Assembly: GCA_030840585.1 (NCBI GenBank)
Contig: JAVEEG010000254.1
Coordinates: 1-54,195 of the forward strand
Direction of reading: 5' to 3'
DNA length: 54,195 bases
Source: Frankiaceae bacterium
Lineage (GTDB): Bacteria; Actinomycetota; Actinomycetes; JAFAQI01
Shown here: positions 29,838 to 49,944 of the stretch, one piece after another
Layout of the letters: each line of letters starts with the position of its first letter
How positions within the stretch are numbered: position 1 is the stretch's first letter
Program-made: the position numbers and the translations under genes
Notes under the pieces: generated by a model
What the model saw: only the letters and a program-made list of their open reading frames with translations
What the model was told of the DNA's origin: nothing
The model's database searches: none

Positions 29838-29850
29838 GAGGTAACTCCAG

Positions 29851-30296: not shown

Positions 30297-30446
30297 CGGG
30301 CGCCACCTTGGCCGGGAGGCGGCACTCGGGCCGGGCTGATCCCCTAACTCGGCCGACACATTCCGGCGCCCCACTAGCGAATCGTGCGTTCGCGGACAGC
30401 GCGTGCGACTTGACCGCACTACGGTCGCGATCAAGGAGGTCTCGCC

Positions 30447-33400: not shown

Positions 33401-33656
33401 CGGCCTGCGTGCGGCGCTCGACCACTTCGGTGCAGGGGTGCAGCCGTATCAGCCCGGTACGGCGGTTCCGCACGGCGCGTGGCTACTCGGAAAATCGACG
33501 ATCCGGGTGGTCTTGCTGACCACGCCGAAGGGTGAGCCGGCGCTGGTGCTCACGCCGGGCGTTGAGGCGCTGGCTGACCCGGGGATCTGGATCGATGAAC
33601 CACCGGCGCACGGCTTGACCGAGATGTGGGTGCCCTCGGTCAAGCCGCGCAAGTAG
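30447..33656 (+). CDS. large leaderless zincin-like metallopeptidase-domain protein with an N-terminal Ig-like (Big_2-like) segment and four C-terminal repeats
   Basis: ATG follows CAAGGAGG. 'GGTVTFTAKAD...TIDANTGDLTV' is Ig-like. 'LLAHELGHMV' encodes HExxH at 31047-31061. 'NPHEDFAETFA' (31536-31559) is a candidate third zinc ligand. Four repeats carry the signature 'HGDGL.RY.PG...G.V..V'. Confidence 0.8.
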   Translation: MVSIKIPSEPLVRGGTVTFTAKADADETLTWTAGPPGAATIDANTGDLTVEDRPAAPYVTVEVHAKKPDGKPSGTDSAKVGITLEWPEDWPYLSDGGLPWFSDSASKGAIPWADGGNEAKADRLRIILWDLVDQLPQGVRDALGPVPFVRVTWVNDNRGGIAIALPSGGAVAVNDTCFTALTADSPKIEPADENIVGLLAHELGHMVMSGLLGPAVWFKALASLTVAILEVVGAAFGEYEAIMHGVLVVPPFPKIAEIVLRTSIWGWGDEMSDYASKGGWQVPSLVGFDVPLLNLLFPWLAAEAPNGLTAWASLNPKQPGLPIPLTNTTFDAATVLALNPADPNYATNLGKAGVPTPYAATNPHEDFAETFARLLLGAKYHGTNAVEPSKDRRDYFIRKGLLVDHPGTPTFIQGAHVAGTLVPDSAAPPSWRLAARAKPKPKQARHVMAAAEFDPDKFDEALLKWYDGPERRIEDARAILAKLPRPPAEAAPLPFLAAAEMHGDGLARYRGVEHPLDPGALLTSDDQRVWLATRVDEQRRVTTVIGDPGGETLPAGGNLPQTDRDALVLHWQPDATPRDWAAGGQPLSPNYADVDAALAQLVPLWGRTDTDNFFVAALHASGLADADKDTGLPKEPCGRDVLAYCETHGDGLVRYEPGVGVAVGDFALLYGGTAWGVVTRVTPDGTPVDVLVGDPTHIPGLVGEEPDAVKLRHGLDLTALPVYAADSDDVLRRRALNATHPLDVDHIWRPAATTRRYVTEEAPVSDAFENLNLALNHLVSHVGLDYLERQGETTQTGNTDMVWASVGLLLERGATADARKRLRGFHGSEREVRDSRFFYGTLSSGGPVQPGDVIGWRTKGGTAEGVVLTVDGGEATRVFTQGKQFVVRDDRVPAESVVWAWTPSATPRELVDDPAIAAFYGDPSALERLVNLRSTAAIPYEDHNYGGESYTCFYTKPDGFVRLLSLNAPDDVRKALWADTDTEFAGLRAALDHFGAGVQPYQPGTAVPHGAWLLGKSTIRVVLLTTPKGEPALVLTPGVEALADPGIWIDEPPAHGLTEMWVPSVKPRK

Positions 33657-33702: not shown

Positions 33703-36642
33703 TTAGCGACTGATCACGAGATTCCATCGGCGGCTGAGCAGCCCGGCACCGACAAGCACCAGGCCGGCGATCGACAGCGCCGCCGAGCCACCGCTGTTCG
33801 CGAGCGACCCACCGCTGCCGCTGGCCGACGGCCCGGACGGCTTCGGCGGCAGCTTCGCGGACGTCCCGCTGGCGGCCAGCGGGTAGACCCAGACACCACG
33901 GCCGTACGTCGCCGCGACGAGGTCCTTGCGATCGGCGGAGAAGTTGATGCCGAACACCCGGACCGTCGGCATCCCGGTACCGAGCTTCTGCCACACCGTG
34001 CTGCCGACCTTCGCGGTGAACACGCCGTAGTCGGTCGCGGCGTAGACCCGGCCGCCGGCCACCTTGATGTCCCACACGTTGCCGCGCGGCAGGTTGCCGG
34101 ACACGTCGGTGACGTGGTCGCCCGCGTCGGTGCTCATCAGCACCCGCGGTGCCGCGGCGCCGCCGAAGTCGACCCGGATGACGCTCGGCGTGATGGTCGC
34201 GATGTAGACGCGCTTCACGTTGGTCGGGTCGGCGGCGACACCGTAGATCTCCCGGGCCGGCATCCCCTTCAACTGCGCGAAGTGCCAGCAGTCAGTGCTG
34301 CCGGTCTTCGCCGTACAGCCGGGCTTGACGTTCGTCGCGAGGGCGCGGTCGAGCGATCCGATCGGCGCCTTCACCGACGACTGGCAGGCGCCACAGGCAC
34401 CGATGTACATGTACGCGCCGTTGACGTCACTGGCTTCGGCGAGCCGGCCGACCCCGTTCGGCGCGGTGCCGAGGTCGAAGACCTGCACCCAGTCACCGGT
34501 GTTGGTGGCGCCGTCGCCACCATCCGTGTCTGCACCCTTCGTCGACTCGTAGACGACCGACGTGGCGAGCACGAGGTGCTTGCTGTCGAACGGATCCATC
34601 GCCGACCCGCCCGGCTCGAACACCGGCTCACCACACGCCGACGTCAGCGGGCAAGGGTCGATCTCGCTCGTCGTCTTGCCGCCGTCGGTCGTGACGTACG
34701 TTGCGCCGTTCGCATTGCAGTAGAAGATGTTCGGGTTGTCCTTGTCGACGCCGACCCAGGTGCCGTCGCCGCCGCAGATCTCGTAGGAGTTGTTGCTGCC
34801 GGGCGGGTAGAAGTTGGTGCCGTTGTCCTGCAGGCCGGCGATGATCTCGCCGTTGCTGCCCTCGACTGCGCGGTACGGCAGCAACTGGTTGAGGTGTGCC
34901 GCCGACGTCCACGCGCCGTTCTGGAACGACGAGCCGGACGCGTGGTCCTGAAGGAACGCGCCGCCGTCGTTGCCGATCCACAACCGCGTCGCGCCGCTGC
35001 CCTTGTCGACCACGGCCACGCCGTGCTGGTCGGGGTGCGTCACCTGACCGCCGTACGGCCCGCCGCCCGGGCAACTCCCCGACGGGACAGCAGGCGTCGT
35101 GACGATGCCGCACGCGGAGACGTACGCGTCGATCGACTCGAACGGCACCGGCTTGAGCACCCCGCCCGTCGGCGGCGTCGTAATCGTCGCGTCGACGAGG
35201 CTCTGGTAGACCTCTTCCTCGCCAATCAGCAGGCGATTTCCGTTGGGATCAAAGGCGATCCAGCCGTTGTACCAAGCCTGGACGCCGGTGTCGTAGCCGA
35301 GCAGGCTGGCCGCGGAGAGCGCTGCCTGGACGCTGCCGGGCGACGCCGTCAGCGACTCCGAGGTCGCGATCTCGTCCCATGTCCCACCGTCGTCGGCCGA
35401 ACGGTAGACACCGTTCAGGCTGGTCGGGTGCGGGATGCCGAGCGGGTCGTACGGGTCGTACGCCGCGGCGAGGCCGGTGGAGCGGTGGCCGGCGTCGGCG
35501 ACGAGCGCGAACAGGTACTTGCCGTCGGGCGAGAACGTGAGCCGGGTCCGGCCGATCGGGTCACTGGAGATGTGACCGTACGGCTGCTCCCAGCCGGTGG
35601 TGGTGCTGGTGACGTTGATGCGGTGGAACGATCCGACCGCGCCGCTCGTGGTCGATGAGTAGAGACCGTTGCCCGGCGCCGCCTTCGACGTCGTGCCGTC
35701 CGGGTGGGTGATGGTCACGTTGCCGGCGACGTAGCCGACCGCGGCGAACACGGTGTAGGCGCCGTTGGATCCCGGCTTGATGACGACGTCCGAGGTCCAC
35801 GATCCGACCGGCGTATCGGTGGCCGGGCCGGTGCCGGCGGCGTTGGTCGGCAGCCGTACGTCGGACCACGTCACCCCGTGGGTGGTGGACCTGAACAGAC
35901 CGCCTGTCGTCGCGGCGAAGACCGTGCCGTCGGGGCCAACCGCTACCTGCTGACCGGCGCCGCGCACCGACGTCGCGGAGGGGTGCCAGGTCGCGCCGCC
36001 GTCATGGGAGTAGTAGGCACCGAGGCCGCCGTACTCGCCGCCGCCCTGGAAGCCCTGGCCGGTGATCGCGTAGACGTTCAAGTGATTGGTCGGGTCGACG
36101 GCCACCGCGGCCACCGGCATCGCCGGGATGCCGGCCGCGGCGGTCCACGACGCGCCGCCGTTGGTGGTCTTGTAGACACCGCCGCCGGTGCCGGCGTAGG
36201 CGACGTCGCCGGTCGTGCTGGTCGGGTCGGTGGCGAGCGCGAGGACGATGCCGGTGGTCGGGAACCGGCCCTCGCTGGTCGCGTAGTTGGGGTCGTTGAG
36301 CAGCTGACCGGTCGGGCCGATCTGGCGCCACGGGTGGGCGTTGGGGGCGAGACCGGCGGCGGCCGCCTTGGCCAGCGCTCCCTGGTCGAACGCGACCGGG
36401 TCGGCGTCCGGCGGCGCGGTGGACAGCGCCATCGCGTCCTTCGCGCCCAGCAACGGCCGGGCCTCGCGGTGGAACACCCGGTCGATCTGCTGCTGATCCT
36501 GCGCTCGCGCGCTCGACCGCGCTGCGCTGGGCGCGGCAGATGGCGCCGCTACCGGTACGGCGGTCGCGGCGCTCGCCACCAGTGCCAGGGCTCCGGTCGT
36601 GATCAGCATGAGGGGCAGTCGTCGTACGGTCACATCAGCCAC
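33703..36642 (-). CDS. cell-wall-anchored Asp-box (BNR) beta-propeller protein, sortilin/GH74-like
   Basis: Repeats include 'TTNGGASW', 'SHDGGATW', 'STTHGVTW', 'SADDGGTW' and 'TTDGGKT'. The C-terminal sorting signal is 'LANSG' (33790-33804) followed by a hydrophobic helix and 'RRW'. The start (GTG 36642 or 36633, just before a signal peptide) is approximate; the track ORF runs to 36726. Confidence 0.85.
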   Translation of the reverse strand: MADVTVRRLPLMLITTGALALVASAATAVPVAAPSAAPSAARSSARAQDQQQIDRVFHREARPLLGAKDAMALSTAPPDADPVAFDQGALAKAAAAGLAPNAHPWRQIGPTGQLLNDPNYATSEGRFPTTGIVLALATDPTSTTGDVAYAGTGGGVYKTTNGGASWTAAAGIPAMPVAAVAVDPTNHLNVYAITGQGFQGGGEYGGLGAYYSHDGGATWHPSATSVRGAGQQVAVGPDGTVFAATTGGLFRSTTHGVTWSDVRLPTNAAGTGPATDTPVGSWTSDVVIKPGSNGAYTVFAAVGYVAGNVTITHPDGTTSKAAPGNGLYSSTTSGAVGSFHRINVTSTTTGWEQPYGHISSDPIGRTRLTFSPDGKYLFALVADAGHRSTGLAAAYDPYDPLGIPHPTSLNGVYRSADDGGTWDEIATSESLTASPGSVQAALSAASLLGYDTGVQAWYNGWIAFDPNGNRLLIGEEEVYQSLVDATITTPPTGGVLKPVPFESIDAYVSACGIVTTPAVPSGSCPGGGPYGGQVTHPDQHGVAVVDKGSGATRLWIGNDGGAFLQDHASGSSFQNGAWTSAAHLNQLLPYRAVEGSNGEIIAGLQDNGTNFYPPGSNNSYEICGGDGTWVGVDKDNPNIFYCNANGATYVTTDGGKTTSEIDPCPLTSACGEPVFEPGGSAMDPFDSKHLVLATSVVYESTKGADTDGGDGATNTGDWVQVFDLGTAPNGVGRLAEASDVNGAYMYIGACGACQSSVKAPIGSLDRALATNVKPGCTAKTGSTDCWHFAQLKGMPAREIYGVAADPTNVKRVYIATITPSVIRVDFGGAAAPRVLMSTDAGDHVTDVSGNLPRGNVWDIKVAGGRVYAATDYGVFTAKVGSTVWQKLGTGMPTVRVFGINFSADRKDLVAATYGRGVWVYPLAASGTSAKLPPKPSGPSASGSGGSLANSGGSAALSIAGLVLVGAGLLSRRWNLVISR

Positions 36643-36796
36643 AAGCCCTACTTCTCCGGCCGCGCTGGGCGACCTGCTTGGCACAATCGCGCGAGATGGA
36701 TCTGACGTCGGAGTAAGAAACGCCACCCCACGCCTGACTCATAACCCCGCGCTGGCAGGTTGCAAACTTCGAACAGCCGAGACCGAGGAGGCCGCG

Positions 36797-37207
36797 ATGC
36801 GGACGCTGCACATCGGTCTACGAGTGCGCGACCTCAACCGGTCGCTCTCGTTCTACACGACCCTCGGTTACGAGCTCGTCGGCGCCGTGCCAGAAACCGA
36901 GTTCGGCAGCCTGACGATGTTGAAGCTCCCCGGCGACGCGTTCGTCAGCATCGAACTCGTCTACGACGCGGCCGCCGGCGCCATCGACGCGCGCGGCCTC
37001 AACCACCTCGTCGTACAGGTTGAGGATCTGCACGCGACGGTCGCTCGCCTCGGCGCAAGCGGCATCGACGCCGAGGCGCCCAGCTCACCCAACGGTTCCG
37101 CAGACTTCTGGACGACCTGGCTCACCGATCCCGACGGCTACCGGATCGAACTGGTGCAATGGCCCGCGGGTCACGCCGACGGGCTCACAGCGGCCGACTT
37201 CCGCTAA
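36797..37207 (+). CDS. VOC/glyoxalase I family protein
   Basis: ATG 36797 follows GAGGAG. 'HIGLRVRDLNRSLSFYTTLGYE' and 'NHLVVQVEDL...DPDGYRIELVQ' are present. Confidence 0.85.
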   Translation: MRTLHIGLRVRDLNRSLSFYTTLGYELVGAVPETEFGSLTMLKLPGDAFVSIELVYDAAAGAIDARGLNHLVVQVEDLHATVARLGASGIDAEAPSSPNGSADFWTTWLTDPDGYRIELVQWPAGHADGLTAADFR

Positions 37208-37336: not shown

Positions 37337-39133
37337 CTAGTGGCAGGGGTAGTACTCGTACGTCATGTGCGTGCCCCAGGTGAACACGGCGCCGGCTGCG
37401 ATGCTCTGGTAGACGATCTTGTCGGTGTCGGTGATACCCGACGGTCTCGTCGACGTGCACGTCGTGCCGAACGGTCCTAGCGCTTTGATGCTCGGCTTGT
37501 CGGAATCGGTCGGCGCGGACGGCGAACACGTGTTCCCGCAGCCGTACGCGTTGTAGTAGTTCGGCATGTACCGCGTCGTGTCTCGCACCGTCCAGGTGAA
37601 CGAGCGGCTCGCCGTCGCCTTGCCGTCGGAAACCATTGCGGTGAGCCGGAAAACCCGGCTCTTGATGCTCGTGTAGTTCGTGGTGACCGAGGCGGCCGAA
37701 ACGCTGATCGTGCCCGAGATGACACCGGTGCTGCGGTTCAGCGACAACCCGGCCGGTAATGCGCCGGACAACGCGTACGTCAGCGAGTTGTGATCCGCGT
37801 CGGCACCGGCGAGCCGAAGGCTCACCGACTTCCGCTCGTTGGTGGTCTGCGCTGCCACCGCGGTCAACGTCGGCGCGTGGTTGCCCGCGGCCGGCGCAGT
37901 GGATCCGGATGGCACCACCGGAACGCTCGATGACGCGGGTGTCGTTGGCGGGGTCGATGGCGCGTGCTTCGTCGCGGTCGAGCGCGGCGAAGGCTTGTGC
38001 GCGACCGGCGACGTCGACGTTGCGCCAGACGACGGCGACGTACTCGACACCGGAGTGCCTTGCGCCAACTGACGGGCACCGTGATGCCACGGCTGCGCGA
38101 TCGCGACACCGGTTATGGCGGCGATCGCAGCGGCCGCGGTGACGATCGCGACGACGCGCCGGCGTGCATGCGGAGTCGGCCCCGGCTGCGGCGGCAGCAT
38201 CGGCGTGGCCCGGCCGCGGCGTCCGATGACGGTCGCCGGATCCGTCTGTTCCCCATTGGCATCGACCGGGTCGCTTGCCGGCGCGACCACGCCGGCGATC
38301 GCCAGCGCAGGCGCATCCGCACCGGCCGCGCGCAGCGCATCGACCAACTCCGCGCCGAACTCCGCCGCCGAACGCGGCCGGTCCGCCGCGTCCTTCGCCA
38401 GCGCGCGATCGATGACGGCGGCAGCGGACTGCGGTACGCCGAACTCGGCCAGCGACGGTGCCGGCTGCGTCGTGATCCGCGCGATGAGCTCCGGCATCCC
38501 GCCCGGGCCGCTGACAAATGGCGAGTGCCCGGCGATGAGTGTGTAGAGCGTCGACGCTAACGAGTAGACGTCGCTCGACGCGGTCGCCGGCCGGCCACTC
38601 AGGATCTCGGGGGCGGCATGCGAGAGCGTCGCGGCCACGGCCGCGGTCGTCGTCGAACTACCGGTCAGCGTCGCGATGCCGAAGTCGCTGATCTTCGCTT
38701 CGCCGTAGTTGCCGAGCAGCACGTTGTCGGGCTTGACGTCGCGATGGATGACACCGGCACGGTGCGCGGTCTCCAGCGCACCGGAGAGCTGGACACCGAA
38801 CCGGAACGCCTCCTGCCAGCTCGCCGAGCCGATCCGCTCGGCGAGGGTGCCGCCGGTGACGAGTTCCATCACGAAGACCGGCATGCCTGAACTGGTACGG
38901 GCGATCGAGTAGACGTTGACGATGTGCGGGTGCGGCGGCAGCGCGGCGACCGCACGGCGCTCCCGATCGAACCGGCGCTCGGCGTCGTCGTCGAGCCTGG
39001 TCTCGATGACCTTCAACGCGACTCGACGGCCAAAGGCCGGATCGTGCGCGCCGTACACGGTGCCGAAGCCGCCTTGCCCAAGCAGTGTGAGGTCGCGGTA
39101 ACCGAGCCCGACAAGTTCGTCGTAGCTAGCCAC
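37337..39133 (-). CDS. transmembrane Ser/Thr protein kinase with extracellular Ig-like (He_PIG-type) and PASTA-like domains
   Basis: GTG 39133 follows AGAGGA; the track ORF runs to 39205. Kinase motifs: 'LGQGGFGTVY', 'VALKVI', 'HRDVKPDNVLL', 'DFGIA', 'APE'. A TM helix 'VVAIVTAAAAIAAITGVAIA' follows. The ectodomain has 'LPAGLSLNRSTGVISGT' and a C-terminal 'IVYQSIAAGAVFTWGTHMTYEYY'. Confidence 0.9.
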   Translation of the reverse strand: MASYDELVGLGYRDLTLLGQGGFGTVYGAHDPAFGRRVALKVIETRLDDDAERRFDRERRAVAALPPHPHIVNVYSIARTSSGMPVFVMELVTGGTLAERIGSASWQEAFRFGVQLSGALETAHRAGVIHRDVKPDNVLLGNYGEAKISDFGIATLTGSSTTTAAVAATLSHAAPEILSGRPATASSDVYSLASTLYTLIAGHSPFVSGPGGMPELIARITTQPAPSLAEFGVPQSAAAVIDRALAKDAADRPRSAAEFGAELVDALRAAGADAPALAIAGVVAPASDPVDANGEQTDPATVIGRRGRATPMLPPQPGPTPHARRRVVAIVTAAAAIAAITGVAIAQPWHHGARQLAQGTPVSSTSPSSGATSTSPVAHKPSPRSTATKHAPSTPPTTPASSSVPVVPSGSTAPAAGNHAPTLTAVAAQTTNERKSVSLRLAGADADHNSLTYALSGALPAGLSLNRSTGVISGTISVSAASVTTNYTSIKSRVFRLTAMVSDGKATASRSFTWTVRDTTRYMPNYYNAYGCGNTCSPSAPTDSDKPSIKALGPFGTTCTSTRPSGITDTDKIVYQSIAAGAVFTWGTHMTYEYYPCH

Positions 39134-39266
39134 ACCGCATCCTCTCGCGCGGGCACCAACCGTTGCGGGTGCCGGTGAACGCACGATAAGCGGACTCCGG
39201 GACACAAGGAGGGCGAATCGTCGAATTCACGTCCGGTCAGGCGCGGGTAGCGCAGACTTGCCCGCA

Positions 39267-42200
39267 ATGGACCTCTGGATGCGCGTCGAGGCGTCGGACA
39301 CGCCGGCCCGTGATGTCGCCGTCGAGTGCAGCCCGGAGAACACCGTCGAGCAGCTGCTCGGCGCGCTGCGCGAGCATCTGCGGCTCGACCTCGCTACGGC
39401 GGCGATCACGCGCACCGGCGAGCGGCTTTCGCCGCGGGCGACGTTGCAGGACGCGGGGCTGCGATCCGGCGACACCTTGCGACCGCGGGTCACGCCGGTG
39501 CGCGGCGGGCCGGCGCATCGCCTCGTCGTCGCCGGCGGCGTGGACGTGGGGCAGTCAGCCGACCTCGATACGTCGACCGGCGAGGTCACGATCGGCCGGG
39601 GCAACCGCGCCGGCCTTCGGGTCCACGACAGCACCGTCTCGTCGCTGCACGCTCGGCTGCGCCGAACACCTGACGGCTACACCGTCGAAGATCTCGGTTC
39701 GTCCAACGGCACGTTCGTCAACGGCGTCCCGGTTACCGGCGCAGTCGCGGTCGAGGTGGGTGACCTCGTCGAGGTCGGCGACGTCGCGCTGCGGATCGCC
39801 GCGGCACCGATGCCGCCGCCGCCGATCCCGCTGAGCGAGGGCCGGCTGCAGTTCACCCGCGGGCCGCGAGTGAGCCGGGCCAATGCGACGACGGTGTTCG
39901 AAGTGCCGGCGCCGCCGGAAGAGCCGACGAAACGTCGGTTCGCGCTGTCGACCGCGCTGGTCCCGCTGGCGATCGCGCCGGTGATGGCACTGATCACCCA
40001 CCAGATCTCCTACCTCGCGATGGCCGCGCTCTCGCCGCTGATCGCCGTCGCGTCGGTAGTCGAGGATCGGCGGCACGGCAGCAAGGACCACGGCAAGAAG
40101 GTCGATGCGTTCCGCCGCGCGGTCGACTCGGCGAGCACGTCGATGGCCGAGTCGGTACAAGACGAGACCGTGGCGCGCTGGTTGGCCTTTCCGGACCCAG
40201 CCGACATCGTCCGGCGGACCACCGGGCCGGCCGCGGATCTGTGGGAGCGACGGCTCGCCGATCCCGACGCGCTCGCGCTTCGGGTCGGTTGGGGCGACCT
40301 GCCGGCGTCGGCTCGATGGGCGATGCGCGAGGGCGGCGAGCAACAGCTGCGCGACGAGGCCGCTGGAGCACTCGGGCAGCACGGCGTCGTACGTTCCGCA
40401 CCCGCCACGGTCACGTTGAAGACCACGCCGGTCGTCGGCGTGAGCGGATCGACCGACGACGTGGACGAGACCGCTCGGTGGCTGGTCGCGCAGGCCGCCG
40501 CACTGCACAGCCCGCGCGAACTGAGCGTCGTCGTCGCGGTCGGCGATGCGCGCGCGGACGCGTGGGAGTGGGCAGCGTGGCTGCCGCACTGCCGCGAAGC
40601 CGACGCGCCGGAGGGCTCGATGGCGACCGTCGCTGTCGGCGGTGCGGAAGCAATCGCCGCGGTCGGCGCGCTCAATGACCTTGTGTCGCAACGGATCCGG
40701 CAGCGCGATGACCGGTCGGCGGCTAAGGCTCCGTCCGCCGCCGTGCTCGCGGTGATCGATCACCGGGCCGGTGTGCCGGCACCGCTGGTCACCGATCTGC
40801 TCGAACGCGGCCCCGGTGCCGGCGTGCATGTCATCTGGCTCGGCGAGTCACGTACGTCGTTGCCGGGCGAGACCTCCGCGATCGTCGACATCCGCGAGCG
40901 GACCGTGTCGGTGACGACCGTCGCCGGCGGCGCCGGTGTCAGCGAGGCGATGCGCGACCGCTGCCCGCCGGAGCTCGCCGCGGACGTCGCTCGCGCACTC
41001 GCCGGTGTCCGCGACGCGTCGGCGCGCAACGCGGTGCGCGGTGACCTGCCAGCCGCGGTCTCGCTGTCGACGGTGCTCGGTGGCATCGACGTCGACCGCA
41101 TCGTTACGGCGTGGACCCGCGACCACCGCAAGCTCGATGCGCCGCTCGGTCTTGGCGAGCACGGCGTCTTCTCCGTCGACCTGCGCCACGACGGGCCGCA
41201 CGGCCTACTCGGCGGTACGACGGGCGCCGGCAAGTCGGAGTTGCTGCAAACGTTGATCGCGTCATTGGCGGCGCGGCACCCACCGACCCGGCTGACGTTC
41301 CTGCTGGTCGACTACAAGGGTGGTGCGGCGTTCAAGGACTGCGTGCATCTCCCGCACGTCGTCGGCTTCGTTACCGACCTCGGCGGCGCGCTGGTGAACC
41401 GCGCGCTGGTGTCGCTCGGTGCCGAGGTACACCGGCGCGAACGGCTGCTCGCCGAGGCCGGCGCGAAGGACCTGCTCGACATGGAACGCATCGCGCCCGA
41501 CCGCGCGCCGGCCAGCCTGCTGGTCGTGGTCGACGAGTTCGCGACCCTCGCGAAGGAACTGCCGGAGTTCGTCGACGGTGTCGTCAACATCGCGCAGCGC
41601 GGACGCTCGCTCGGCGTACATCTGATCCTCGCCACCCAGCGGCCCGCGGGTGTCGTCAACGACAACATCCGGGCGAACACGAACATGCGGATCGCGTTGC
41701 GGATGAACGACGAAACCGACTCACGTGACGTCGTCGGCGTACCCGATGCGGCCCGGTTGCCGCGCAGCATTCCCGGCCGGGCTTACGTGCGCACCGGTGC
41801 CGGCGAGCTCGCGCTCGTGCAGGTCGCCTTTGCCGGCGCGACCGATGCACCCAGTGCCGAAGCCAGCACGATCGTCGTCGCCGACATCGAGCGCGGCCGG
41901 GTGGTCCATCGGGACCGCACCATCACTACCGCGGCGCCGGCGGCGTCTGGCAGCACCGATCTCGAACGTGTCGTCGCCGCGAGTGTGGCCGGCGCGGACA
42001 AGCTGGCGCTGCCGGCACCAGTGACGCCGTGGCTGCCGCCATTGCCGGATCTGGTCCGGCTCGACGACCTCGACGGCGCGGGGATCGGTCTCGTCGACGT
42101 ACCCGCGCAGCAGCGGCAGGTGCCGTACGCCGTCAACCTGCAAACCGACGGAAACCTGTTGGTACTCGGTGCTTCCGGCGCCGGCAAGACCACGTTGCTG

Positions 42201-43553
42201 CGCACCCTGGCGGTCTCGCTCGCGCGCCAGCACTCCCCCGCCGACCTGCATCTGTACGCGCTGGACTTCGCCTCGCGCGGTTTGCGCACCCTCGCCGCGC
42301 TGCCGCACTGCGGGGCCGTCGTCGCCGGTGACGACGTCGACCGGATCGCGCGCATGTTCACGACGCTGCGCCGGTGGATCGAGGAGCGTCGGCGGCGGTT
42401 CGCCGAGACCGGCGCCACGTCCGTCGACGAGTACGCGCGCCTCAACGCTCACGCCGCGCCGATGCCAAGGGTCGTCGTCATGCTCGACGGCTACTCGGGC
42501 TTCGCCTCGGCGTTCGAGAAGGTCGAGCACGGCGCGCTGATCGACGAGCTGCCGCGGTTGGTCGGTGACGGTCATGCAGTCGGCGTTCACTTCGTCATCA
42601 CCGCGAACCGGCGCAACGCGTTGCCGCCGAGCCTCGCCGCACTCATCTCGACCTCGATCGTCTTCCGGCTGGCCGACGCCGACGACTACAGCGCCGCCGG
42701 TCTCGACGCGCGGTTGCTGAAAGGCGCCACGCTGCCACCGGGCCGCGGGTACCAAGCCGGTACGACGACCGAACTGCAGTGCGCGGTCGTAGGCATCGAT
42801 GCAAGCGGTGACGCGCAGCAGGCCGCGGTCTCCGCGATCGCCGCCGACCTCGTCGCCCGATGGCCGGGCCAGCAGGCGCCACCGGTCGCGACGTTGCCCG
42901 ACACCGTCCCGCGGCGCGACGTCGCCGGGCTGTCGCGGTCATTGCGTCCGGTCGTCGGCATCGGCGAGCGGGAGTTGGCGCCGGTCGCGATCGATCTCGA
43001 AGAAGCGCACTTCTTCGTGGCCGGCCCGATCCGATCCGGCAAGTCCGCTGCACTCGCTGCCCTAGCGCTCGGGCTTCGGGAAGCGGATCCGGATCTGCGA
43101 CTCGTCCTGCTGGCACCGCGGCGATCGCCGTTGACATCGTTGACGATCTGGTCGGCACTCGCCCGCACGGACGACGACATCACCGCGTTGTGCGAGCAAC
43201 TCGAACAGACCGCATCGGACAGCACCGCCGAGCCCACTGTCGTCGTACTTGACGACGGGCAAGAACTACTTGACAGCGCGGCGAGCGGCAGCCTGGAGAT
43301 GATGGCGCGGCGCGGTCGGGACACAACGTTGCGCCTCGTTGCCGCGTGCGACATCACCGCCGCGTTGCGCGCGTACGGCGGTTGGGTCGGCGAGCTGAAG
43401 AAGGACCGGCACGGCCTGCTGCTGCAGCCGGATGCGGACAACGACGGCGATCTGTTCGGGCTTCGATTGCCGCAGCTGCGGACCAATCCGCCAGGGCGGG
43501 GTTACCTAGTCACTCGATTTGGCGCAGAGCCAGTACAGGTCGCGCAATCGTGA
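39267..43553 (+). CDS. EssC/EccC-like type VII secretion ATPase: ubiquitin-like + FHA + 2 TM + three FtsK/SpoIIIE P-loop modules
   Basis: The ORF is open from TTG 39258. ATG 39267 was chosen, and ATG 39279 is also possible. The FHA segment is 'GEVTIGRGN..SSLHARL..DLGSSNGTFVNG'. Walker A motifs lie at 41211-41237 (GGTTGAGKS), 42169-42195 (GASGAGKTT) and 43023-43046 (GPIRSGKS). Walker B is 'LLVVVDEF'. Confidence 0.9.
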   Translation: MDLWMRVEASDTPARDVAVECSPENTVEQLLGALREHLRLDLATAAITRTGERLSPRATLQDAGLRSGDTLRPRVTPVRGGPAHRLVVAGGVDVGQSADLDTSTGEVTIGRGNRAGLRVHDSTVSSLHARLRRTPDGYTVEDLGSSNGTFVNGVPVTGAVAVEVGDLVEVGDVALRIAAAPMPPPPIPLSEGRLQFTRGPRVSRANATTVFEVPAPPEEPTKRRFALSTALVPLAIAPVMALITHQISYLAMAALSPLIAVASVVEDRRHGSKDHGKKVDAFRRAVDSASTSMAESVQDETVARWLAFPDPADIVRRTTGPAADLWERRLADPDALALRVGWGDLPASARWAMREGGEQQLRDEAAGALGQHGVVRSAPATVTLKTTPVVGVSGSTDDVDETARWLVAQAAALHSPRELSVVVAVGDARADAWEWAAWLPHCREADAPEGSMATVAVGGAEAIAAVGALNDLVSQRIRQRDDRSAAKAPSAAVLAVIDHRAGVPAPLVTDLLERGPGAGVHVIWLGESRTSLPGETSAIVDIRERTVSVTTVAGGAGVSEAMRDRCPPELAADVARALAGVRDASARNAVRGDLPAAVSLSTVLGGIDVDRIVTAWTRDHRKLDAPLGLGEHGVFSVDLRHDGPHGLLGGTTGAGKSELLQTLIASLAARHPPTRLTFLLVDYKGGAAFKDCVHLPHVVGFVTDLGGALVNRALVSLGAEVHRRERLLAEAGAKDLLDMERIAPDRAPASLLVVVDEFATLAKELPEFVDGVVNIAQRGRSLGVHLILATQRPAGVVNDNIRANTNMRIALRMNDETDSRDVVGVPDAARLPRSIPGRAYVRTGAGELALVQVAFAGATDAPSAEASTIVVADIERGRVVHRDRTITTAAPAASGSTDLERVVAASVAGADKLALPAPVTPWLPPLPDLVRLDDLDGAGIGLVDVPAQQRQVPYAVNLQTDGNLLVLGASGAGKTTLLRTLAVSLARQHSPADLHLYALDFASRGLRTLAALPHCGAVVAGDDVDRIARMFTTLRRWIEERRRRFAETGATSVDEYARLNAHAAPMPRVVVMLDGYSGFASAFEKVEHGALIDELPRLVGDGHAVGVHFVITANRRNALPPSLAALISTSIVFRLADADDYSAAGLDARLLKGATLPPGRGYQAGTTTELQCAVVGIDASGDAQQAAVSAIAADLVARWPGQQAPPVATLPDTVPRRDVAGLSRSLRPVVGIGERELAPVAIDLEEAHFFVAGPIRSGKSAALAALALGLREADPDLRLVLLAPRRSPLTSLTIWSALARTDDDITALCEQLEQTASDSTAEPTVVVLDDGQELLDSAASGSLEMMARRGRDTTLRLVAACDITAALRAYGGWVGELKKDRHGLLLQPDADNDGDLFGLRLPQLRTNPPGRGYLVTRFGAEPVQVAQS

Positions 43554-43610
43554 TCTAGAGTCCGCAAACGTCGAGCCGAACCGGCGGCCGACACAACCGA
43601 AGGGCGTGCA

Positions 43611-44204
43611 ATGACGCGAATCTCGGTGGATGCAAAGAGCCTGACTACGTACGGCACGGCGGCCGAGCAGGCGTTCAAAGGCGTACGTACCGAACTCACG
43701 GGTCTCGTGCACAGCTGCACGACCGTTCCTTACGAGGGCCCGAACTCGGCGGCGTTTAAGAACGGCTGCGGCAAGCTCGCGACCGAGTTCTCCGCGTCAC
43801 TGCTCAGCGACATCGGCAAGTTCACCGACGCCGTCCGCGACGTGACGACGGGCATCGCGCGCTCGCTCGGCGGGCATCCCGTGACGATTCACTTCAACGG
43901 CAGCCCGATCACGGCGCCGGCGGTCCCGGCCGCGGACCCCAACTACACGATGGTCGACACGTCGCCGCTGCATCAGCTGAAGTCGACGGTGCACGGCCAC
44001 TTCAACAAGATCAACGCGCACCTCGACGAGCACCTGCGCGCCTTCCAGCACGCGAAGTGGGAAGGCCACGCGCGCGAGGCTGCGCACAGCGCGCTGCGGA
44101 CCTTTACGTCGAACACGAAGTCGGACGTCACCCAAGCGCAGCAGCACATCGAGAAGTTCATCGACGAGCAGATCCAGAGCGTCACCACCGCCGACCAGGG
44201 GTAG
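43611..44204 (+). CDS. single-chain tandem WXG100-like protein
   Basis: 197 aa; ATG follows GAAGGG. The first hairpin carries 'YEGPNSAAF' (43731-43739). The second carries the canonical 'WEGHAREAAHSAL' (44058-44066). A Pro-rich linker between them contains YTMVD (43944-43958). Confidence 0.65.
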   Translation: MTRISVDAKSLTTYGTAAEQAFKGVRTELTGLVHSCTTVPYEGPNSAAFKNGCGKLATEFSASLLSDIGKFTDAVRDVTTGIARSLGGHPVTIHFNGSPITAPAVPAADPNYTMVDTSPLHQLKSTVHGHFNKINAHLDEHLRAFQHAKWEGHAREAAHSALRTFTSNTKSDVTQAQQHIEKFIDEQIQSVTTADQG

Positions 44205-44210
44205 CGACCG

Positions 44211-44531
44211 ATGGTGACGTTGCCGCCGAAGCCTCCCGGTGACGTGGCAGCGACGCAAGCGATGATCCGCAAGTTGCAAAGCGAGCGCAACGGCGTCGTG
44301 GAACTGCGGAAAGCGCTGGCGAACCTGCTCAACGGAGCTGAGGATCTCTCCGGCATCTACATGCTCGGCGTGACGACGTTCCGGCTGAGTGCGATCGCGC
44401 AGGTCGACATCGCGATCACCGGAGTCGACGCGGCGATTGCCTCAGCGAAGACTGCCGTCGCGCGGCTGGAGCACGACCTCGCCGCGTGGCGGCAGGAGTG
44501 CGCCCGGATCCAGGCGGCGGCGTCACCATGA
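44211..44531 (+). CDS. small helical protein (about 100 aa, PE/EsxB-sized partner candidate)
   Basis: 106 aa, predicted helical. Its stop overlaps the next start (ATGA at 44528-44531). Confidence 0.55.
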   Translation: MVTLPPKPPGDVAATQAMIRKLQSERNGVVELRKALANLLNGAEDLSGIYMLGVTTFRLSAIAQVDIAITGVDAAIASAKTAVARLEHDLAAWRQECARIQAAASP

Positions 44532-45640
44532 GCGACTCGATGGACCTCGAGCAGGTCGAGGCATTGCTGCGGAACATGGGTCACGTCGTTCAACGGGTCG
44601 AGACGATGGGCGGTGCGCTCGGCGCGGCGTGGCAAGGAGTCGACCTGCCGCGGGGCTGCGACCTCTCCGGGCTCGCCCTTGCACTCAAGAGCCTTCAGGC
44701 GGTCGGGCAGGAGACGGCAAGCCAGGCGAAGTTGTTGTACGACACCGTCACCGAGGCCACGAAGGCCGACAAGAGTTGGGGCGATCACGTCAAGGGCTGG
44801 CTGACGCCGCCGAAGACCGGCCATCACTCCCTCGACGCCGTCTTCGGCGCGCCGGCTTCCGTCGCCGCCGGCGCCACCGACGTCGGTTACGACCTCGGCG
44901 CCGGTGTCGTCGGGTTGACCTGGGACATCATCGACATCCCCGGCGACGTCAACGCCTACCGGCACGGCGACGTGATGCCGATCCAGAAGCCCGGGCTCGG
45001 CCTGATCAATGTCGCCGTCAATCCCGAGGATGCGGGCAAGGCGCTGATCGGCTGGAAGTACCACAACGACCCGCTACGGATGGGCACGTATGCGGTCGGC
45101 AACCTGCTCACGATGATCGCGACCGGCGGCCTCGGCGAGCTCGCGGAGGGCACGCTCGCTGCCCGGCTGGCCAAGCTCACCGCGGAAGGCAGCACGACCA
45201 GCCGCTCGCTCGCAAAGGCCATCGAGGACCTCGAGCGCAGGCGAGCCGAGTTGCCCTCGAGCCGGCAGCGGTCGCCCGGCAAGCGCAAGTGGGTCCGGCA
45301 AGAGAAGTCGTCGATCGACCGCGACCTCGAGCGGCTGCGCAAGCATCTCAACGAACACCAAGAGCACATGACGAACGTTCGCGACCGCTACAACGCGCTC
45401 GCGAACCTGCGCAACAACCGTTGGGTCACGGGCTTCGGCGACGCGACCGCGCTGTACATCCCGACGGCGGTCCAGAAAGTCGTGAACTGGATCAGCCATG
45501 GCCACAGTGACGCGATCAAGGAGATTCTGGAGAAGTACATGGAACTCCAGGGCTACGCGACCGGCGGCCAGGACTACACCGACAGCAAGGAAGCCCGCCG
45601 CCGGTTGGCCGAGTTCGCCGCGAACCACCCGAGGAGCTGA
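44528..45640 (+). CDS. WXG-headed putative type VII substrate/effector
   Basis: ATG 44528 lies in frame inside the track ORF 44486..45640. The N-terminal helical hairpin carries 'GAAWQGVDL' (WQG at 44630-44638). The middle is a Gly-rich hydrophobic segment '...NLLTMIATGGLGELAEG'. The last ~150 aa are charged and helical. Confidence 0.6.
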   Translation: MSDSMDLEQVEALLRNMGHVVQRVETMGGALGAAWQGVDLPRGCDLSGLALALKSLQAVGQETASQAKLLYDTVTEATKADKSWGDHVKGWLTPPKTGHHSLDAVFGAPASVAAGATDVGYDLGAGVVGLTWDIIDIPGDVNAYRHGDVMPIQKPGLGLINVAVNPEDAGKALIGWKYHNDPLRMGTYAVGNLLTMIATGGLGELAEGTLAARLAKLTAEGSTTSRSLAKAIEDLERRRAELPSSRQRSPGKRKWVRQEKSSIDRDLERLRKHLNEHQEHMTNVRDRYNALANLRNNRWVTGFGDATALYIPTAVQKVVNWISHGHSDAIKEILEKYMELQGYATGGQDYTDSKEARRRLAEFAANHPRS

Positions 45641-45641
45641 C

Positions 45642-46361
45642 GTGGCTTACAGCCTGAGTTTCACCACCGAGGAGTGGGCAGCGGCGATCGCCGCACTCGA
45701 ACTCCCCGAACCACTCGGCCTCGATGGCATCACCGGCCCACCGGACGGTGAGCCCGACAGTGCGGCGCTGGCCGTCGGCGCTCGGTCGTTGCTGGGTCGC
45801 GGATTGTTCGACCCGTCCGACTCCGATCGCGACGTCCATCCGTTGTTCGTCGGGCTGCTGCTCGCTTTGCTCGAAGCGGAAGAGGTCGTCGTCGTCACCA
45901 CCGCGTACCCGGGCGCGACCACCACCAACGGTTGGTACGTCGTCGGCGCGACCGGCGTATCGATGTCGCAGGATCCGTTGACGAATCTGCGGTTCCGGGT
46001 CGCGCCGGCGAACGAGGTGATCGCGCAGGCGAAGGACACGTTCGCGCAACTCGCGACGGCGGCGCCGGCCCGCGAGCAGTACCCGGTCGAGCCGAGCGAT
46101 CTACGCGCCGTACTCGAATCATTGACCGGCGAGGACCAGCCGAGCCCGGTGCTACGGACCGGGGGGACATCCCGCCCGGTCTCGTTCCTCGCCAGCATTC
46201 GCGGCTGGACCCGCGAGGGTCAGGACGTCGTCGAGTCGAGCCTGTTCGCGGTCGGCTTGACCGGTCACGGCAACTGGGTCGTCGACGACGGTGGCGGCGT
46301 ACCCGTACTCACCCAGATGCGCTCGCCATGGCCCGATGCGTTGAACCGGTTCACCGCCTGA
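45642..46361 (+). CDS. EspG-like chaperone candidate (alternatively an immunity protein)
   Basis: GTG 45642 sits 5 nt after GAGGAG and 1 nt after the upstream stop. 'LSFTTEEWAAAIAALELPEPLGL...ARSLLGRGLFDP...VHPLFVGLLLALLEAEEVVVV' follows the EspG N-terminal pattern as I recall it. Confidence 0.45.
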   Translation: MAYSLSFTTEEWAAAIAALELPEPLGLDGITGPPDGEPDSAALAVGARSLLGRGLFDPSDSDRDVHPLFVGLLLALLEAEEVVVVTTAYPGATTTNGWYVVGATGVSMSQDPLTNLRFRVAPANEVIAQAKDTFAQLATAAPAREQYPVEPSDLRAVLESLTGEDQPSPVLRTGGTSRPVSFLASIRGWTREGQDVVESSLFAVGLTGHGNWVVDDGGGVPVLTQMRSPWPDALNRFTA

Positions 46362-46420
46362 GCAGTTGCGTTGCCAGTCGCGCACGGCGACCCTAAAGTG
46401 ACCGCTCAAAAGGGGGAACC

Positions 46421-46981
46421 GTGCTCGCCATCATCGTTATCGCCGTGGCAGCGCTCGTGCTGCTGCTGGTCATCCTCGGGTTCAACAGCCTCGTGCGGTC
46501 CCGCAACAAGACCGACAACGCGTGGGCGCAGGTCGACGTCCAGCTGACGAAGCGCCACGACCTGATCCCGAACCTCGTCGAGACGGTCAAGGGTTACGCG
46601 GCCCACGAGCGGCAGACCTTTGAAGCCGTGACGGCCGCGCGCACCGCCGCGCTGAACACCCGCGGCCCGGCTGCACAGGCGGGAGCCGAGAATGCGTTGA
46701 CCGCGGCGGTGGGCCGGTTGATGGCGGTCGCCGAGAACTACCCCCAGCTGCGGTCGAGCGCGAACTTCCTCGCGCTCCAGGATCAGCTCTCCTCCGTCGA
46801 GTCCGGCATCGCGTATGCCCGGCAGTACTACAACGACTCGGTCCTGACGTACGAGAACCGCCGCAATCAGTTCCCATTGTTGCTGATCGCGGGTCCGCTC
46901 GGTTTCGGCCAGCGTGAGTACTTCAAGGCCGATGCGGCCGCGACCGAACCGGTCGCGACGTCCTTCACCGCCTCCCCGTGA
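46421..46981 (+). CDS. lemA: LemA family protein
   Basis: An N-terminal TM helix is followed by 'FNSLVRSRNKTDNAWAQVDVQLTKRHDLIPNLVETVKGYAAHE' and 'AENYPQLRSSANFLALQDQL...YYNDSV..YEN'. Confidence 0.9.
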   Translation: MLAIIVIAVAALVLLLVILGFNSLVRSRNKTDNAWAQVDVQLTKRHDLIPNLVETVKGYAAHERQTFEAVTAARTAALNTRGPAAQAGAENALTAAVGRLMAVAENYPQLRSSANFLALQDQLSSVESGIAYARQYYNDSVLTYENRRNQFPLLLIAGPLGFGQREYFKADAAATEPVATSFTASP

Positions 46982-48450
46982 TCGTCGCGGCGCTGACCGC
47001 CGCGACTACCGCGAGTCGCCATCAGACGGTTGTCTTCCAGCTCGGCGTCGACAAGGTCGCGTTGGCCATCGGCGCACTCATCGCGCTCGCCGCGCTCGCC
47101 ATTGTCGTCGTACGCCGGGAGCGCCCGCCGGCCGCCGGACCTCGCACCCTCGACTTGCCACCTCAAAGCCCCGCCGTCGCCGCGCTACTGGTCAACACTC
47201 GAGAGGTGCCGGGCGAAGCTGCCGCGGCGACGCTCGTCGATCTGGCCAGCCGCGGCGTCCTCGAGATCGTCGAGATGGGCGGCGGCACGCCGGGCGTCCG
47301 GCTGACCCGGCGTGAGTTGCCGGACCTGACGCCGTACGAGAAACGAGTTCTCGACCTCGTCCGCGCCCACGCCGACGGCGACGGCATCGCTCCCGGCGGC
47401 GCGCTCGCGCTGGCCGGCGACAAGGAGTCGACCGCATGGCTCGAGGGGCTCCGGGCAGAAGTGCGGGCCGAGGCACAGCGCAACGGTTGGGTCCGCTCCC
47501 GGTACGGGCGCGAGGTTCTGGCGCTCGGCGTCGTGCTGGCCGCGGCCGCGCTGGTCATCGGGATCTGGGGCTACGCGACCGCGACGACGTACAACTCCTA
47601 CCTGCCTCACCCCGTCGTTCCGAACGAGCGGCTACGGAACCTGCTTGCGCTTGCTGCCGTCGTCGTCGGCGTGCTCGACTTCGTCATCGTCACAAAGCTC
47701 GCCGGTAGCCACGCTCAACTCCTCACCCGCGCGGGCCGGCCGGTAGCCGCGGCGTGGCTCGGCGTCGCCGCGCATCTTCGGGACGACGAGCAACTCAGCG
47801 ATGCGCCGCCGGGCGCGGTCGCCGTTTGGCACCGGCTGCTTGCGTACGCGACCGCGTTCGGTGTCGCCCATCGCGTGCAGGAGGAACTCCCCCTCGGCCC
47901 CGAGTCGACGACTCATGCCTGGAGCGCGGAGAGCGGGCGCTGGCGAATCGTTCGGATCCGCTATCCGAAGTGGTGGCCGCCTGGCTGGGGCAAGCGGCCG
48001 GGCGAGATGCTCCTCCAAGGGGCGATCCTCGGCCTGCAATCCGGGGTGCCGATCGCGGTCATCGTGGTGCTCGGATCGAAACTGGCCGACGCCAGCATCC
48101 TCAGCCATGTCAACGTCCCGTGGTACGCCTACCTGATCGCTGCAGTGGTCGTCGGGGCGTTCGCCCTCAGTGCGCTAAGAGCCGTCGTGTCGATCGTGGT
48201 CGGCCTCGCAACGCTCGCGGCTCTCGCCGGAGCGCAACGCGAGGTCACCGGTCGCGCGGTGCGCGTGCGTCCAATCACTGGGGACGGCGGCAAGTGGGTC
48301 GCGTTGGACGACGGCAGCCGTAACGAGATTCCGGCGTACCAGGTCCGGATCGCCAACGACATCACCCAAGGCGACCGCGTGCGGCTACGGGTGCGACCCA
48401 TCACCGGCGAGGTGCGTTCCGCCGAGGTGGTCGGCGACAAGCCGGCCTAA
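46978..48450 (+). CDS. DUF2207-like membrane protein (the usual LemA partner)
   Basis: The GTG start overlaps the lemA stop (GTGA). 'PPQSPAVAALLVNTREVPGEAAAATLVDLASRGVLEIVE' resembles the DUF2207 C-terminal module. Several TM helices are present. Confidence 0.6.
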   Translation: MIVAALTAATTASRHQTVVFQLGVDKVALAIGALIALAALAIVVVRRERPPAAGPRTLDLPPQSPAVAALLVNTREVPGEAAAATLVDLASRGVLEIVEMGGGTPGVRLTRRELPDLTPYEKRVLDLVRAHADGDGIAPGGALALAGDKESTAWLEGLRAEVRAEAQRNGWVRSRYGREVLALGVVLAAAALVIGIWGYATATTYNSYLPHPVVPNERLRNLLALAAVVVGVLDFVIVTKLAGSHAQLLTRAGRPVAAAWLGVAAHLRDDEQLSDAPPGAVAVWHRLLAYATAFGVAHRVQEELPLGPESTTHAWSAESGRWRIVRIRYPKWWPPGWGKRPGEMLLQGAILGLQSGVPIAVIVVLGSKLADASILSHVNVPWYAYLIAAVVVGAFALSALRAVVSIVVGLATLAALAGAQREVTGRAVRVRPITGDGGKWVALDDGSRNEIPAYQVRIANDITQGDRVRLRVRPITGEVRSAEVVGDKPA

Positions 48451-48457
48451 CCCGCTG

Positions 48458-48503
48458 GAGTGTGTACTCGCGGCGGTCATGACGACCGCAATCGCACACA
48501 CTC
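48458..48503. terminator. weak nested hairpin between convergent genes
   Basis: The outer 8-bp stem pairs gagtgtgt (48458-48465) with acacactc (48496-48503). The inner 6-bp stem pairs gcggtc (48473-48478) with gaccgc (48484-48489). There is no T-tract. Confidence 0.25.
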
Positions 48504-48520
48504 GCGCGGACGCTAGGGGA

Positions 48521-49933: not shown

Positions 49934-49944
49934 GCCGAGCGCCG

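Follow-up and report, generated by a model that had tools for sequence, protein, structure and literature searches.

A probable kinase-coupled, type VII-like protein-export module in a Frankiaceae metagenome-assembled genome

Can a type VII secretion system (T7SS) be built around a motor ATPase and a membrane kinase, with the canonical membrane partners missing? The question is raised by a six-gene locus (positions 37337 to 46361) in the window analysed here, a complete contig of 54,195 bp (JAVEEG010000254.1, ~68% G+C) from a metagenome-assembled genome (MAG) labelled Frankiaceae bacterium. A Ser/Thr kinase is encoded on the minus strand, and an ATPase and four further genes follow on the plus strand, with gaps downstream of the ATPase of 57, 6, -4 and 1 nt. 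Open reading frames (ORFs) were chosen by third-position GC content (GC3), which is 0.83-0.90 in five of the six genes, the sixth having a high-GC3 frame plot; all six are intact. An initial annotation, made by a model from the letters of the DNA, had given these ORFs, strands and gaps nearly to the base, and had read the locus as a hybrid and uncharacterised WXG-export machine, minimal or differently built. Sequence comparison supports a type VII-family protein-export locus and not a DNA translocase. On balance, we think it probable that the six genes form a compact, kinase-coupled type VII-like export module belonging to an actinobacterial lineage outside the published types T7SSa-j.

The ATPase (39267..43553, plus strand, 1428 aa) is an EssC/EccC-type T7SS motor by its NCBIfam and Protein Data Bank (PDB) matches. 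ATG 39267 is the best start, its MDLWMRVE matching the MELWLRVE of homologues; the form from TTG 39258 is not on record, since the NCBI record starts at ATG 39279. That record, a MAG Frankiaceae protein named 'segregation ATPase FtsK/SpoIIIE', is 100% identical, and Pfam returned FtsK_SpoIIIE (E 8e-63) and FHA (PF00498, E 2.6e-15). The NCBIfam EssC model (TIGR03928) aligned end to end over aa 198-1420 with 605 bits, below its equivalog cut-off of 778, and EccCa gave 419 bits, below its cut-off of 509. The second and third P-loop domains (D2-D3) passed EccCb (377 bits vs a cut-off of 346.55), while FtsK reached merely 63 bits across 74 aa. Against the PDB, the best scores were T. curvata EccC at 296 bits, EccC5 at 238 and YukB at 226, with FtsK at 68, which bears out the initial view that this is no single-module DNA translocase. 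The first P-loop domain (D1) alone scored higher with YukB (162 bits) than with EccC D1 domains (129 and 111), so the impression of a 'hybrid' has some basis. The chain holds a degenerate DUF ATPase-like domain and three P-loop domains, the EccC/EssC layout first proposed. Their Walker A motifs read GTTGAGKS in D1 (41214..41237, with a Walker B of LLVVVDE), GASGAGKT in D2 (42168..42191, where the initial position was 1 nt off) and GPIRSGKS in D3 (43023..43046). Two hydropathy peaks at aa 228-246 and 250-268 mark predicted transmembrane helices (39939..40061).

The N-terminus of the ATPase sets it apart. Its first 80 residues form a predicted ubiquitin-like beta-grasp domain of the YukD/EsaB type (39312..39479), matching Rad60-SLD above cut-off (25.3 bits) and YukD below cut-off (19.4 bits, E 0.0018). 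A profile of 35 family N-termini matched ISG15/ubiquitin (E 2e-9), and the YukD model recognised 8 of the 35. A single FHA domain follows (39585..39779); across 37 homologues its phosphothreonine-binding residues (G-R, S-x-x-H and N-G) show no variation or are conserved to at least 90%. Its phosphothreonine pocket is thus intact, and the domain is phosphothreonine-competent as predicted from these residues. Both the ubiquitin-like fusion and the FHA domain had been recognised in the initial annotation. In the literature we found no description of a fusion between a ubiquitin-like domain and the ATPase. According to Iyer et al. (2006), YukD in actinobacteria always forms a fusion with the 12-transmembrane EccD, and the ubiquitin-like domain of T7SSa is likewise carried on EccD (PMC1779556, PMC11217815).

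Divergent from the ATPase lies the gene for a membrane Hanks-type Ser/Thr kinase (37337..39133, minus strand; Pkinase E 7e-44). GTG 39133, with GAGAGGA upstream, is its most likely start and fits orthologues of 600-620 aa, although the ORF can be extended to GTG 39205. The cytoplasmic catalytic domain (38372..39100, minus strand; Pfam Pkinase at aa 36-278 of the 622-aa ORF) retains the motifs HRDVKPDN, DFG and VALK, and the protein is predicted from them to be an active kinase, intact as initially described. A single transmembrane helix (38099..38155, minus strand; hydropathy 2.49 at aa 351-369) leads to an extracytoplasmic Ig-like He_PIG domain (37586..37873, minus strand; PF05345, E 9e-11) and a Cys-containing C-terminal region. 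Just before the helix, T297 and T301 followed by G-R-R (598-aa-form numbering) are invariant in an alignment of four cassette kinases, those of the window and of the orthologous loci L001, L088 and L002, with identity down to 35%. These two threonines are candidate phospho-docking sites. In its topology the kinase clearly corresponds to EssB/YukC, a part discounted in the initial claim that all membrane partners are lacking; for the canonical partners that claim stands within the contig and the flanks of syntenic loci. The intergenic region (39134..39266) presumably holds the divergent promoters, judging by gene arrangement only, and a scan of it for a sigma-70 consensus gave no match. On the other side of the kinase, a glyoxalase/bleomycin-resistance-family ORF (36599-37207, plus strand, E 2e-14) lies between it and a large BNR-repeat protein. 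Because this intervening ORF is on the strand opposite to the kinase, the kinase is not co-transcribed with the BNR protein.

Conservation of gene order in relatives, which the initial annotation had proposed as a check, was found: the layout of kinase with He_PIG, ATPase and genes for proteins of 197, ~106, ~375 and ~240 aa recurs in four further metagenomic loci (L001, L088, L091 and L002). The He_PIG domain was seen in the kinases of L001, L088 and L091. By virtue of its recurrence the layout is not a chance arrangement. The ATPases of these loci are 78-79% (L001), 57% (L091 and L088) and 53% (L002) identical to the window's, and gene order is kept down to the lowest of these values. The small proteins co-diverge with the ATPase, at 65-76% identity where the ATPase has 79% and at 44-48% where it has 53-57%. 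In all five complete cassette loci the kinase adjoins the ATPase, in two arrangements: divergently upstream in the window, L001, L088 and L091, and downstream in L002.

The ATPase itself belongs to a much wider family. A scan of GTDB species genomes found at least 593 relatives, the best 80 of which are 32-48% identical over nearly the full length. They occur in Streptomyces, Actinomadura, Micromonospora, Microbacterium, Arthrobacter, Terrabacter, Gaiellales, Acidimicrobiia and Ca. Dormibacterota, and every named member carries the label 'FtsK/SpoIIIE domain-containing' or 'cell division protein FtsK' (NCBI, JGI, UniRef). Among 86 family loci, 28 have a kinase within 10 kb, and 27 of 32 kinases retain their catalytic motifs. 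WXG100, EspC-like and T7SS_signal proteins, including one RHS toxin, neighbour the ATPase in many of these loci.

What, then, would such a motor export? The gene directly after it (43611..44204, plus strand) encodes a 197-aa protein of two ~95-aa halves, each with a conserved, central YxG or WxG motif. In all four orthologues Pfam WXG100 matched the C-terminal half below threshold (E 2.7e-4 to 0.015), and sequence and profile searches of the PDB gave no match. In Micromonospora, a 193-aa protein with a significant WXG100 match in its C-terminal half adjoins an ATPase of the family. From these features the 197-aa protein is probably, though this is unproven, a tandem WXG100-like protein and a candidate core substrate. 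Of the 'double-WXG' protein initially described, the conserved motifs stand, and the family assignment is weakly supported, given the scores and profile comparisons weighed below.

The next two genes encode a small and a larger protein. The 106-aa protein (44211..44531, plus strand) is conserved with the cassette, with orthologues in L001, L002, L088 and L091, and matched nothing in Pfam or NCBIfam; by analogy it is a candidate small partner (Lap/PE-like) of the 370-aa protein that follows. The latter (44528..45640, plus strand; GC3 frame plot) is predicted to be all-helical and has only 11 homologues, all full-length, whose conserved part is a Gly/Pro-rich central region and then a long helix. 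The WXG head ascribed to it was not upheld, as the W of its 'WQG' is not conserved in homologues. Foldseek matches of its predicted model were discarded as coiled-coil noise, none having E <=0.001. We consider it a candidate for export, either as a substrate or as an effector. Since no immunity-like gene comes after it, a conserved system component or effector seems more likely than a polymorphic antibacterial toxin.

The last gene (45642..46361, plus strand) encodes a 239-aa protein with no sequence-level family match in Pfam, NCBIfam or homologue searches. The family is rare, with 9 homologues in 5.8e9 proteins and 11 clusters in 1.84e9 representatives. Its AlphaFold2 model has a predicted local distance difference test score (pLDDT) of 75 and a predicted template modelling (TM) score of 0.73. 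When the model was compared with the PDB by Foldseek, the top 17 matches were all EspG1/3/5 (E 1e-7 to 7e-6, TM ~0.5), and the first non-EspG match was far weaker (E 7e-3). The predicted structure thus supports an EspG fold, as first suggested, and by analogy the protein is a candidate cytosolic chaperone for the 106/370-aa pair.

Links from the four small proteins to the neighbours of other family ATPases were sought in several ways. In jackhmmer searches against 1388 neighbour ORFs from 86 loci, only orthologues were found (L001, L002 and L066). Profile-profile comparison (hhalign) of the small-protein families with neighbour clusters, among them WXG100 clusters c2/c3, EspC-like c6, T7SS_signal c5 and the 210-230-aa clusters c8/c18/c24, gave no link above 44% probability, with working positive controls. 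A metagenome scan with the EspG-like alignment recovered only two loci, a degenerate pattern having swamped the scan.

Are the canonical partners really missing? About 50 called ORFs from the whole contig were searched against Pfam and NCBIfam. Nothing matched EccB, EccD, EccE or mycosin, or EssA, EssB or EsaA, in agreement with the initial annotation, and there was no match to a von Willebrand factor A (vWA) protein or a PPM phosphatase (PP2C). The ±10-kb flanks of the syntenic loci L001, L002, L088 and L091, some on contigs of 97-183 kb, likewise contained no canonical partner. In all ten loci with precomputed Pfam annotation no ecc gene lay within 10 kb, and clustering of the 1388 neighbour ORFs produced no cluster resembling an ecc gene. 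Three candidates within the window were rejected. A Peptidase_S8 ORF (11224-12765), the sole near-miss and the only subtilase-like ORF, was considered as a mycosin, but it scored 24.9 bits, had no NCBIfam mycosin match and lies 26 kb away. A TsdI/EsaA-like role was considered for the 1007-aa BNR protein (33703-36726) and for a 1069-aa protein (30447-33656), neither of which is conserved beside the kinase in L001, L088 and L091.

Our next question was whether the locus falls within a type already described. The concept of a variant T7SS with a kinase, an FHA-bearing ATPase and an EspG-like protein is already known: Garrett, Higginson & Palmer (2024) defined T7SSc-j, noting active membrane kinases (TscD, TsdD), phosphothreonine-competent FHA domains on TsdC, TseC and TsjC, nearly universal ubiquitin-like proteins, and EspG-like proteins found only by fold (PMC11217815). 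In calling the locus hybrid and not characterised, the initial annotation therefore went too far, even though the window's D1 does lie nearer YukB. Streptomyces, Actinomadura, Micromonospora and Frankia go unmentioned in the text of that paper; its supplements, available as incomplete text and hence a weak negative, yielded neither the genus names of the family nor six RefSeq accessions. For D1 we used the references in Fig. S2 of Garrett et al., read by optical character recognition and therefore noisy. With these, D1 of the window has 34% identity to EccC5 and 42-52% to EssC and TscC-TsjC, highest for TscC (~50-52%) and ~44% for TsdC; to each of the 84 family members its identity is at least 58.8%. 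In a neighbour-joining tree of D1 based on the same reference sequences, the family forms a monophyletic group apart from the nine T7SSb-j references. By this comparison the lineage does not appear to be covered by T7SSd or by any other listed T7SSa-j type.

In composition T7SSc is nearest, with five of its seven components in common: a WXG-type protein (probable in the window), a ubiquitin-like module, the motor ATPase, a single-pass membrane Ser/Thr kinase that is active, and a protein whose likeness to EspG shows only in its fold. However, T7SSc occurs in Bacillota (Paenibacillus, B. anthracis, Brevibacillus) and the window's locus in Actinomycetota (PMC11217815). TscC has no FHA domain and the ubiquitin-like TscB is separate, whereas in the window both modules are fused to the ATPase. 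The seven T7SSc components TscA-G include a vWA protein (TscE) and a PPM phosphatase (TscF), neither of which was matched in the window, and a D1 identity of ~50% to TscC falls clearly short of 58.8%, the lowest value within the family. T7SSd (Olsenella, Bifidobacterium) is the only non-ESX actinobacterial type described (PMC11217815). It shares with the window its actinobacterial host, a phosphothreonine-competent FHA domain on the ATPase, a membrane kinase, a WXG protein (probable in the window) and a small number of components, but it has neither the ubiquitin-like nor the EspG-like component that are both present here. Conversely, its small transmembrane protein TsdH and its huge Ig-like envelope protein TsdI have no conserved counterpart in the window's locus, and the gaps of the operon leave no room for a TsdH-like protein.

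The B. subtilis T7SSb also combines a ubiquitin-like protein, an ATPase bearing FHA domains and a single-pass membrane protein with a kinase fold. In the cryogenic electron microscopy structure of its YukD-YukB-YukC complex, the ubiquitin-like protein stabilises the FHA domains and a kinase-fold dimer binds FHA2 (PMC12637312). The differences are that YukC/EssB is a pseudokinase, that EssC has two FHA domains without a phosphothreonine pocket and that the ubiquitin-like protein is separate; the window has an intact kinase and one FHA domain with the pocket, preceded in cis by the ubiquitin-like domain. EssA, EsaA/YueB and EssB have no match in the window, where the position of EssB in the topology is filled by an active member of the Pkinase family. 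In mycobacterial ESX loci, the PE/PPE-EspG trio resembles the succession of genes for a ~100-aa helical, a larger helical and an EspG-fold protein after the ATPase and the Esx-like gene. The window differs in having no PE or PPE matches and no recognised YxxxD/E motif, in the lack of EccB/D/E/MycP matches, and in an ATPase that carries FHA and ubiquitin-like domains where T7SSa EccC has no FHA. Frankiaceae are not known to be mycolate diderms.

How might such a locus work? Beyond domain identity and gene linkage all the steps that follow are inferred. The kinase would autophosphorylate, candidate sites being the juxtamembrane T297 and T301 or the activation loop. The FHA domain of the ATPase would dock on the phosphothreonine, stabilised in cis by the ubiquitin-like domain, reproducing the YukD / YukB-FHA / YukC(EssB) triad with an active kinase and with the ubiquitin-like module on the motor (PMC12637312). 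Docking would in turn drive assembly or activation of the ATPase oligomer, and the channel might be formed by the transmembrane helices of the ATPase together with that of the kinase. A translocon made mainly of ATPase helices is conceivable because EccC transmembrane helices line the central pore in ESX-5 hexamer structures. The 197-aa tandem WXG-like protein would serve as the core, EsxA/B-like co-substrate, and the EspG-like chaperone could hold the 106/370-aa helical pair for export, in analogy to PE/PPE-EspG or Lap/LXG-EsaE. By analogy, a phospho-dependent version of the YukD-FHA-YukC assembly switch would be the most economical reading. A bolder version is an unclassified T7SS subtype of Actinomycetota and Ca. 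Dormibacterota, with the ubiquitin-like-FHA-ATPase and the active kinase as its sole membrane components and a phospho-switched two-protein translocon that dispenses with EccB/D/E/MycP and EssA/EsaA. This we put forward tentatively and regard as possible but doubtful.

Several observations weigh against a kinase-coupled module of this kind. The 197-aa orthologues scored 18.4, 16.0, 21.6 and 19.9 bits against WXG100, whose cut-off is 27.3, and the profile of this protein reached a probability of at most 13% against genuine WXG100 neighbour clusters in hhalign comparisons whose positive controls worked. The AlphaFold2 model of the 370-aa protein (pLDDT 45.6) was unusable. About two thirds of the family loci have no kinase within 10 kb, and Ser/Thr kinases are abundant in actinobacteria, so some of the adjacency could be coincidental. 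The window is one MAG contig, and EccB/D/E/MycP or other partners could lie elsewhere; for this reason the self-sufficiency implied by 'minimal machine' is not proven, although a T7SS-type locus, the other half of the initial proposal, is what we found. These last points lead to the main rival, which we regard as unlikely: the six genes would be an accessory module, a satellite of a canonical ESX elsewhere in the genome that uses the EccB/EccD/EccE/MycP of that system. Streptomyces species carrying this ATPase family also have a canonical esx locus, and two traits of the window's locus belong to T7SSa, namely the EspG fold and a D2-D3 that scored above the EccCb cut-off (377 bits). Yet the ATPase has transmembrane helices of its own and a ubiquitin-like-FHA N-terminus that T7SSa EccC does not have, the T7SSa ubiquitin-like domain sitting on EccD instead (PMC1779556, PMC11217815). 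D1 is nearer YukB (162 bits) than EccC D1 (129 and 111), the family extends to Ca. Dormibacterota, Gaiellales and Acidimicrobiia, and the ten Pfam-annotated loci are free of ecc genes within 10 kb.

It is also quite unlikely, in our view, that the locus is a stand-alone T7SS variant with unrecognised membrane partners elsewhere, its kinase being a mere regulator (transcriptional or post-translational) or a bystander and not an EssB-like subunit. The kinase adjoins the ATPase in each of the five complete cassettes despite rearrangement, the FHA pocket is strictly conserved, and gaps of 57, 6, -4 and 1 nt leave no room for hidden genes in the operon. For a mere regulator speak the family loci without a nearby kinase, ATPases at 53-54% identity whose different partner operons encode unannotated 550-620-aa proteins, and E. 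faecalis IreK, a kinase that regulates T7SSb only transcriptionally (cited in PMC11217815). A decaying T7SS remnant without present function would fit the absence of canonical partners from the contig search and the orphan nature of several small proteins, which have very few homologues. With six intact genes (GC3 0.83-0.90 in five, a high-GC3 frame plot in the sixth), intact catalytic motifs and gene order conserved to 53% ATPase identity, we find it highly improbable. Hardly credible is a DNA translocase, whether a conjugative TraB/FtsK-like or a cell-division ATPase: the database names throughout NCBI, JGI and UniRef point that way ('FtsK/SpoIIIE', 'cell division protein FtsK'), but the protein has three tandem P-loops plus the DUF, scores 605 bits with EssC vs 63 with FtsK and 296 with PDB EccC vs 68 with FtsK, and its neighbours are WXG100, T7SS_signal and EspG-fold proteins.

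If the kinase-coupled module were self-sufficient, it would be the smallest known T7SS membrane apparatus and a tractable model of how a T7SS ATPase is switched on by phosphorylation, FHA docking and a ubiquitin-like module; relatives in cultured Streptomyces, Micromonospora and Actinomadura make it tractable. Should this reading be true, hundreds of actinobacterial 'FtsK/cell division' proteins would be re-annotated as secretion motors, which would sit beside WXG100, T7SS_signal and RHS-type cargo, and the T7SSa-j scheme would gain a second non-ESX actinobacterial type. The YukD-FHA-kinase assembly switch would then have a natural 'Rosetta stone' in the cis-fusion of ubiquitin-like and FHA domains. 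Even as an accessory module, an EspG-fold chaperone with non-PE/PPE clients would broaden the clientele expected of EspG-type proteins.

Surroundings of the ATPase vary across the family. Two ATPases 53-54% identical to the window's (L086:12658-19227 and L087:12552-17064) have a quite different, convergent partner operon of WXG100, ~600-aa, ~140-aa, ~103-aa T7SS_signal/PPE-like and ~557-aa proteins, the large ones having no family matches; L086 also has two tandem Ser/Thr kinases. In ~13 family loci from Actinomadura, Streptosporangium, Nonomuraea, Actinacidiphila and others (including L021, L023, L024, L032, L033, L036, L043, L053, L070 and L075), a Tad-pilus gene set lies directly upstream of the ATPase and comprises a CpaF-type T2SSE ATPase, TadB/C T2SSF, TadE-like and Flp-like genes. 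This echoes the adjacency of T7SSg/h and Tad reported in Bacillota by Garrett et al. (PMC11217815). Many Streptomyces (L037, L054, L059-L062, L064, L065, L069, L071, L072, L080 and L082) have a convergent membrane kinase gene immediately downstream of the ATPase, and beyond the kinase comes a menaquinone gene of the MqnA type (VitK2_biosynth, E 7e-74). Because this gene follows the ATPase-kinase pair in many species, the arrangement indicates a conserved chromosomal locus. Upstream modules in Streptomyces encode ~105-aa EspC/WXG-like, ~420-500-aa T7SS_signal and 210-230-aa unannotated proteins, the same small/~400/~220-aa size pattern as the 106/370/239-aa trio without detectable homology. Outside Actinomycetota, full-length ATPases of 39-40% identity are found in Candidatus Dormibacterota MAGs (L013 and L014), and in L014 a kinase lies ~0.6 kb downstream of the ATPase.

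The cassette adjoins UPF0182 and a HAMP-PAS histidine kinase in the window, L001, L091 and L092, with variable genes inserted between. The stretch up to UPF0182 (window 46362-49944) contains LemA, DUF2207_C and a 470-aa orphan in the window, is empty in L001 and L092, and in L091 holds two PD40-like proteins, a 457-aa protein and a cation-efflux protein; it looks like an insertion hot-spot. LemA, DUF2207 and the 470-aa gene were rejected as parts of the system, being absent in L001 and L092, where UPF0182 directly follows the cassette.

Elsewhere in the window, three genes for cyclic di-GMP turnover, one GGDEF and two GGDEF-EAL, lie within 14 kb (7093-10435 and 18738-21005), with a hemerythrin-domain gene at 10574-11149. 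At 11224-14037 (minus strand) the weak subtilase-like ORF adjoins a protein-glutamine glutaminase-like gene (Gln_deamidase_2, E 9e-30); neither gene has a link with the type VII-like locus. Two large proteins with BNR/sortilin-like repeats, 1153 and 1007 aa long, are encoded on the minus strand at 15221-18682 and 33703-36726; the 1007-aa protein, just beyond the kinase, has N- and C-terminal hydrophobic helices and is not conserved in syntenic loci. Finally, at 28077-33656 a 1502-aa minus-strand ORF overlaps the 1069-aa plus-strand ORF, and fn3 matches (E 3e-21) fall at ~29.4-29.7 kb, outside the 1069-aa gene. Probably there are two divergent genes here that meet near 30.4 kb, and what remains of the long ORF is a high-GC antisense artefact.

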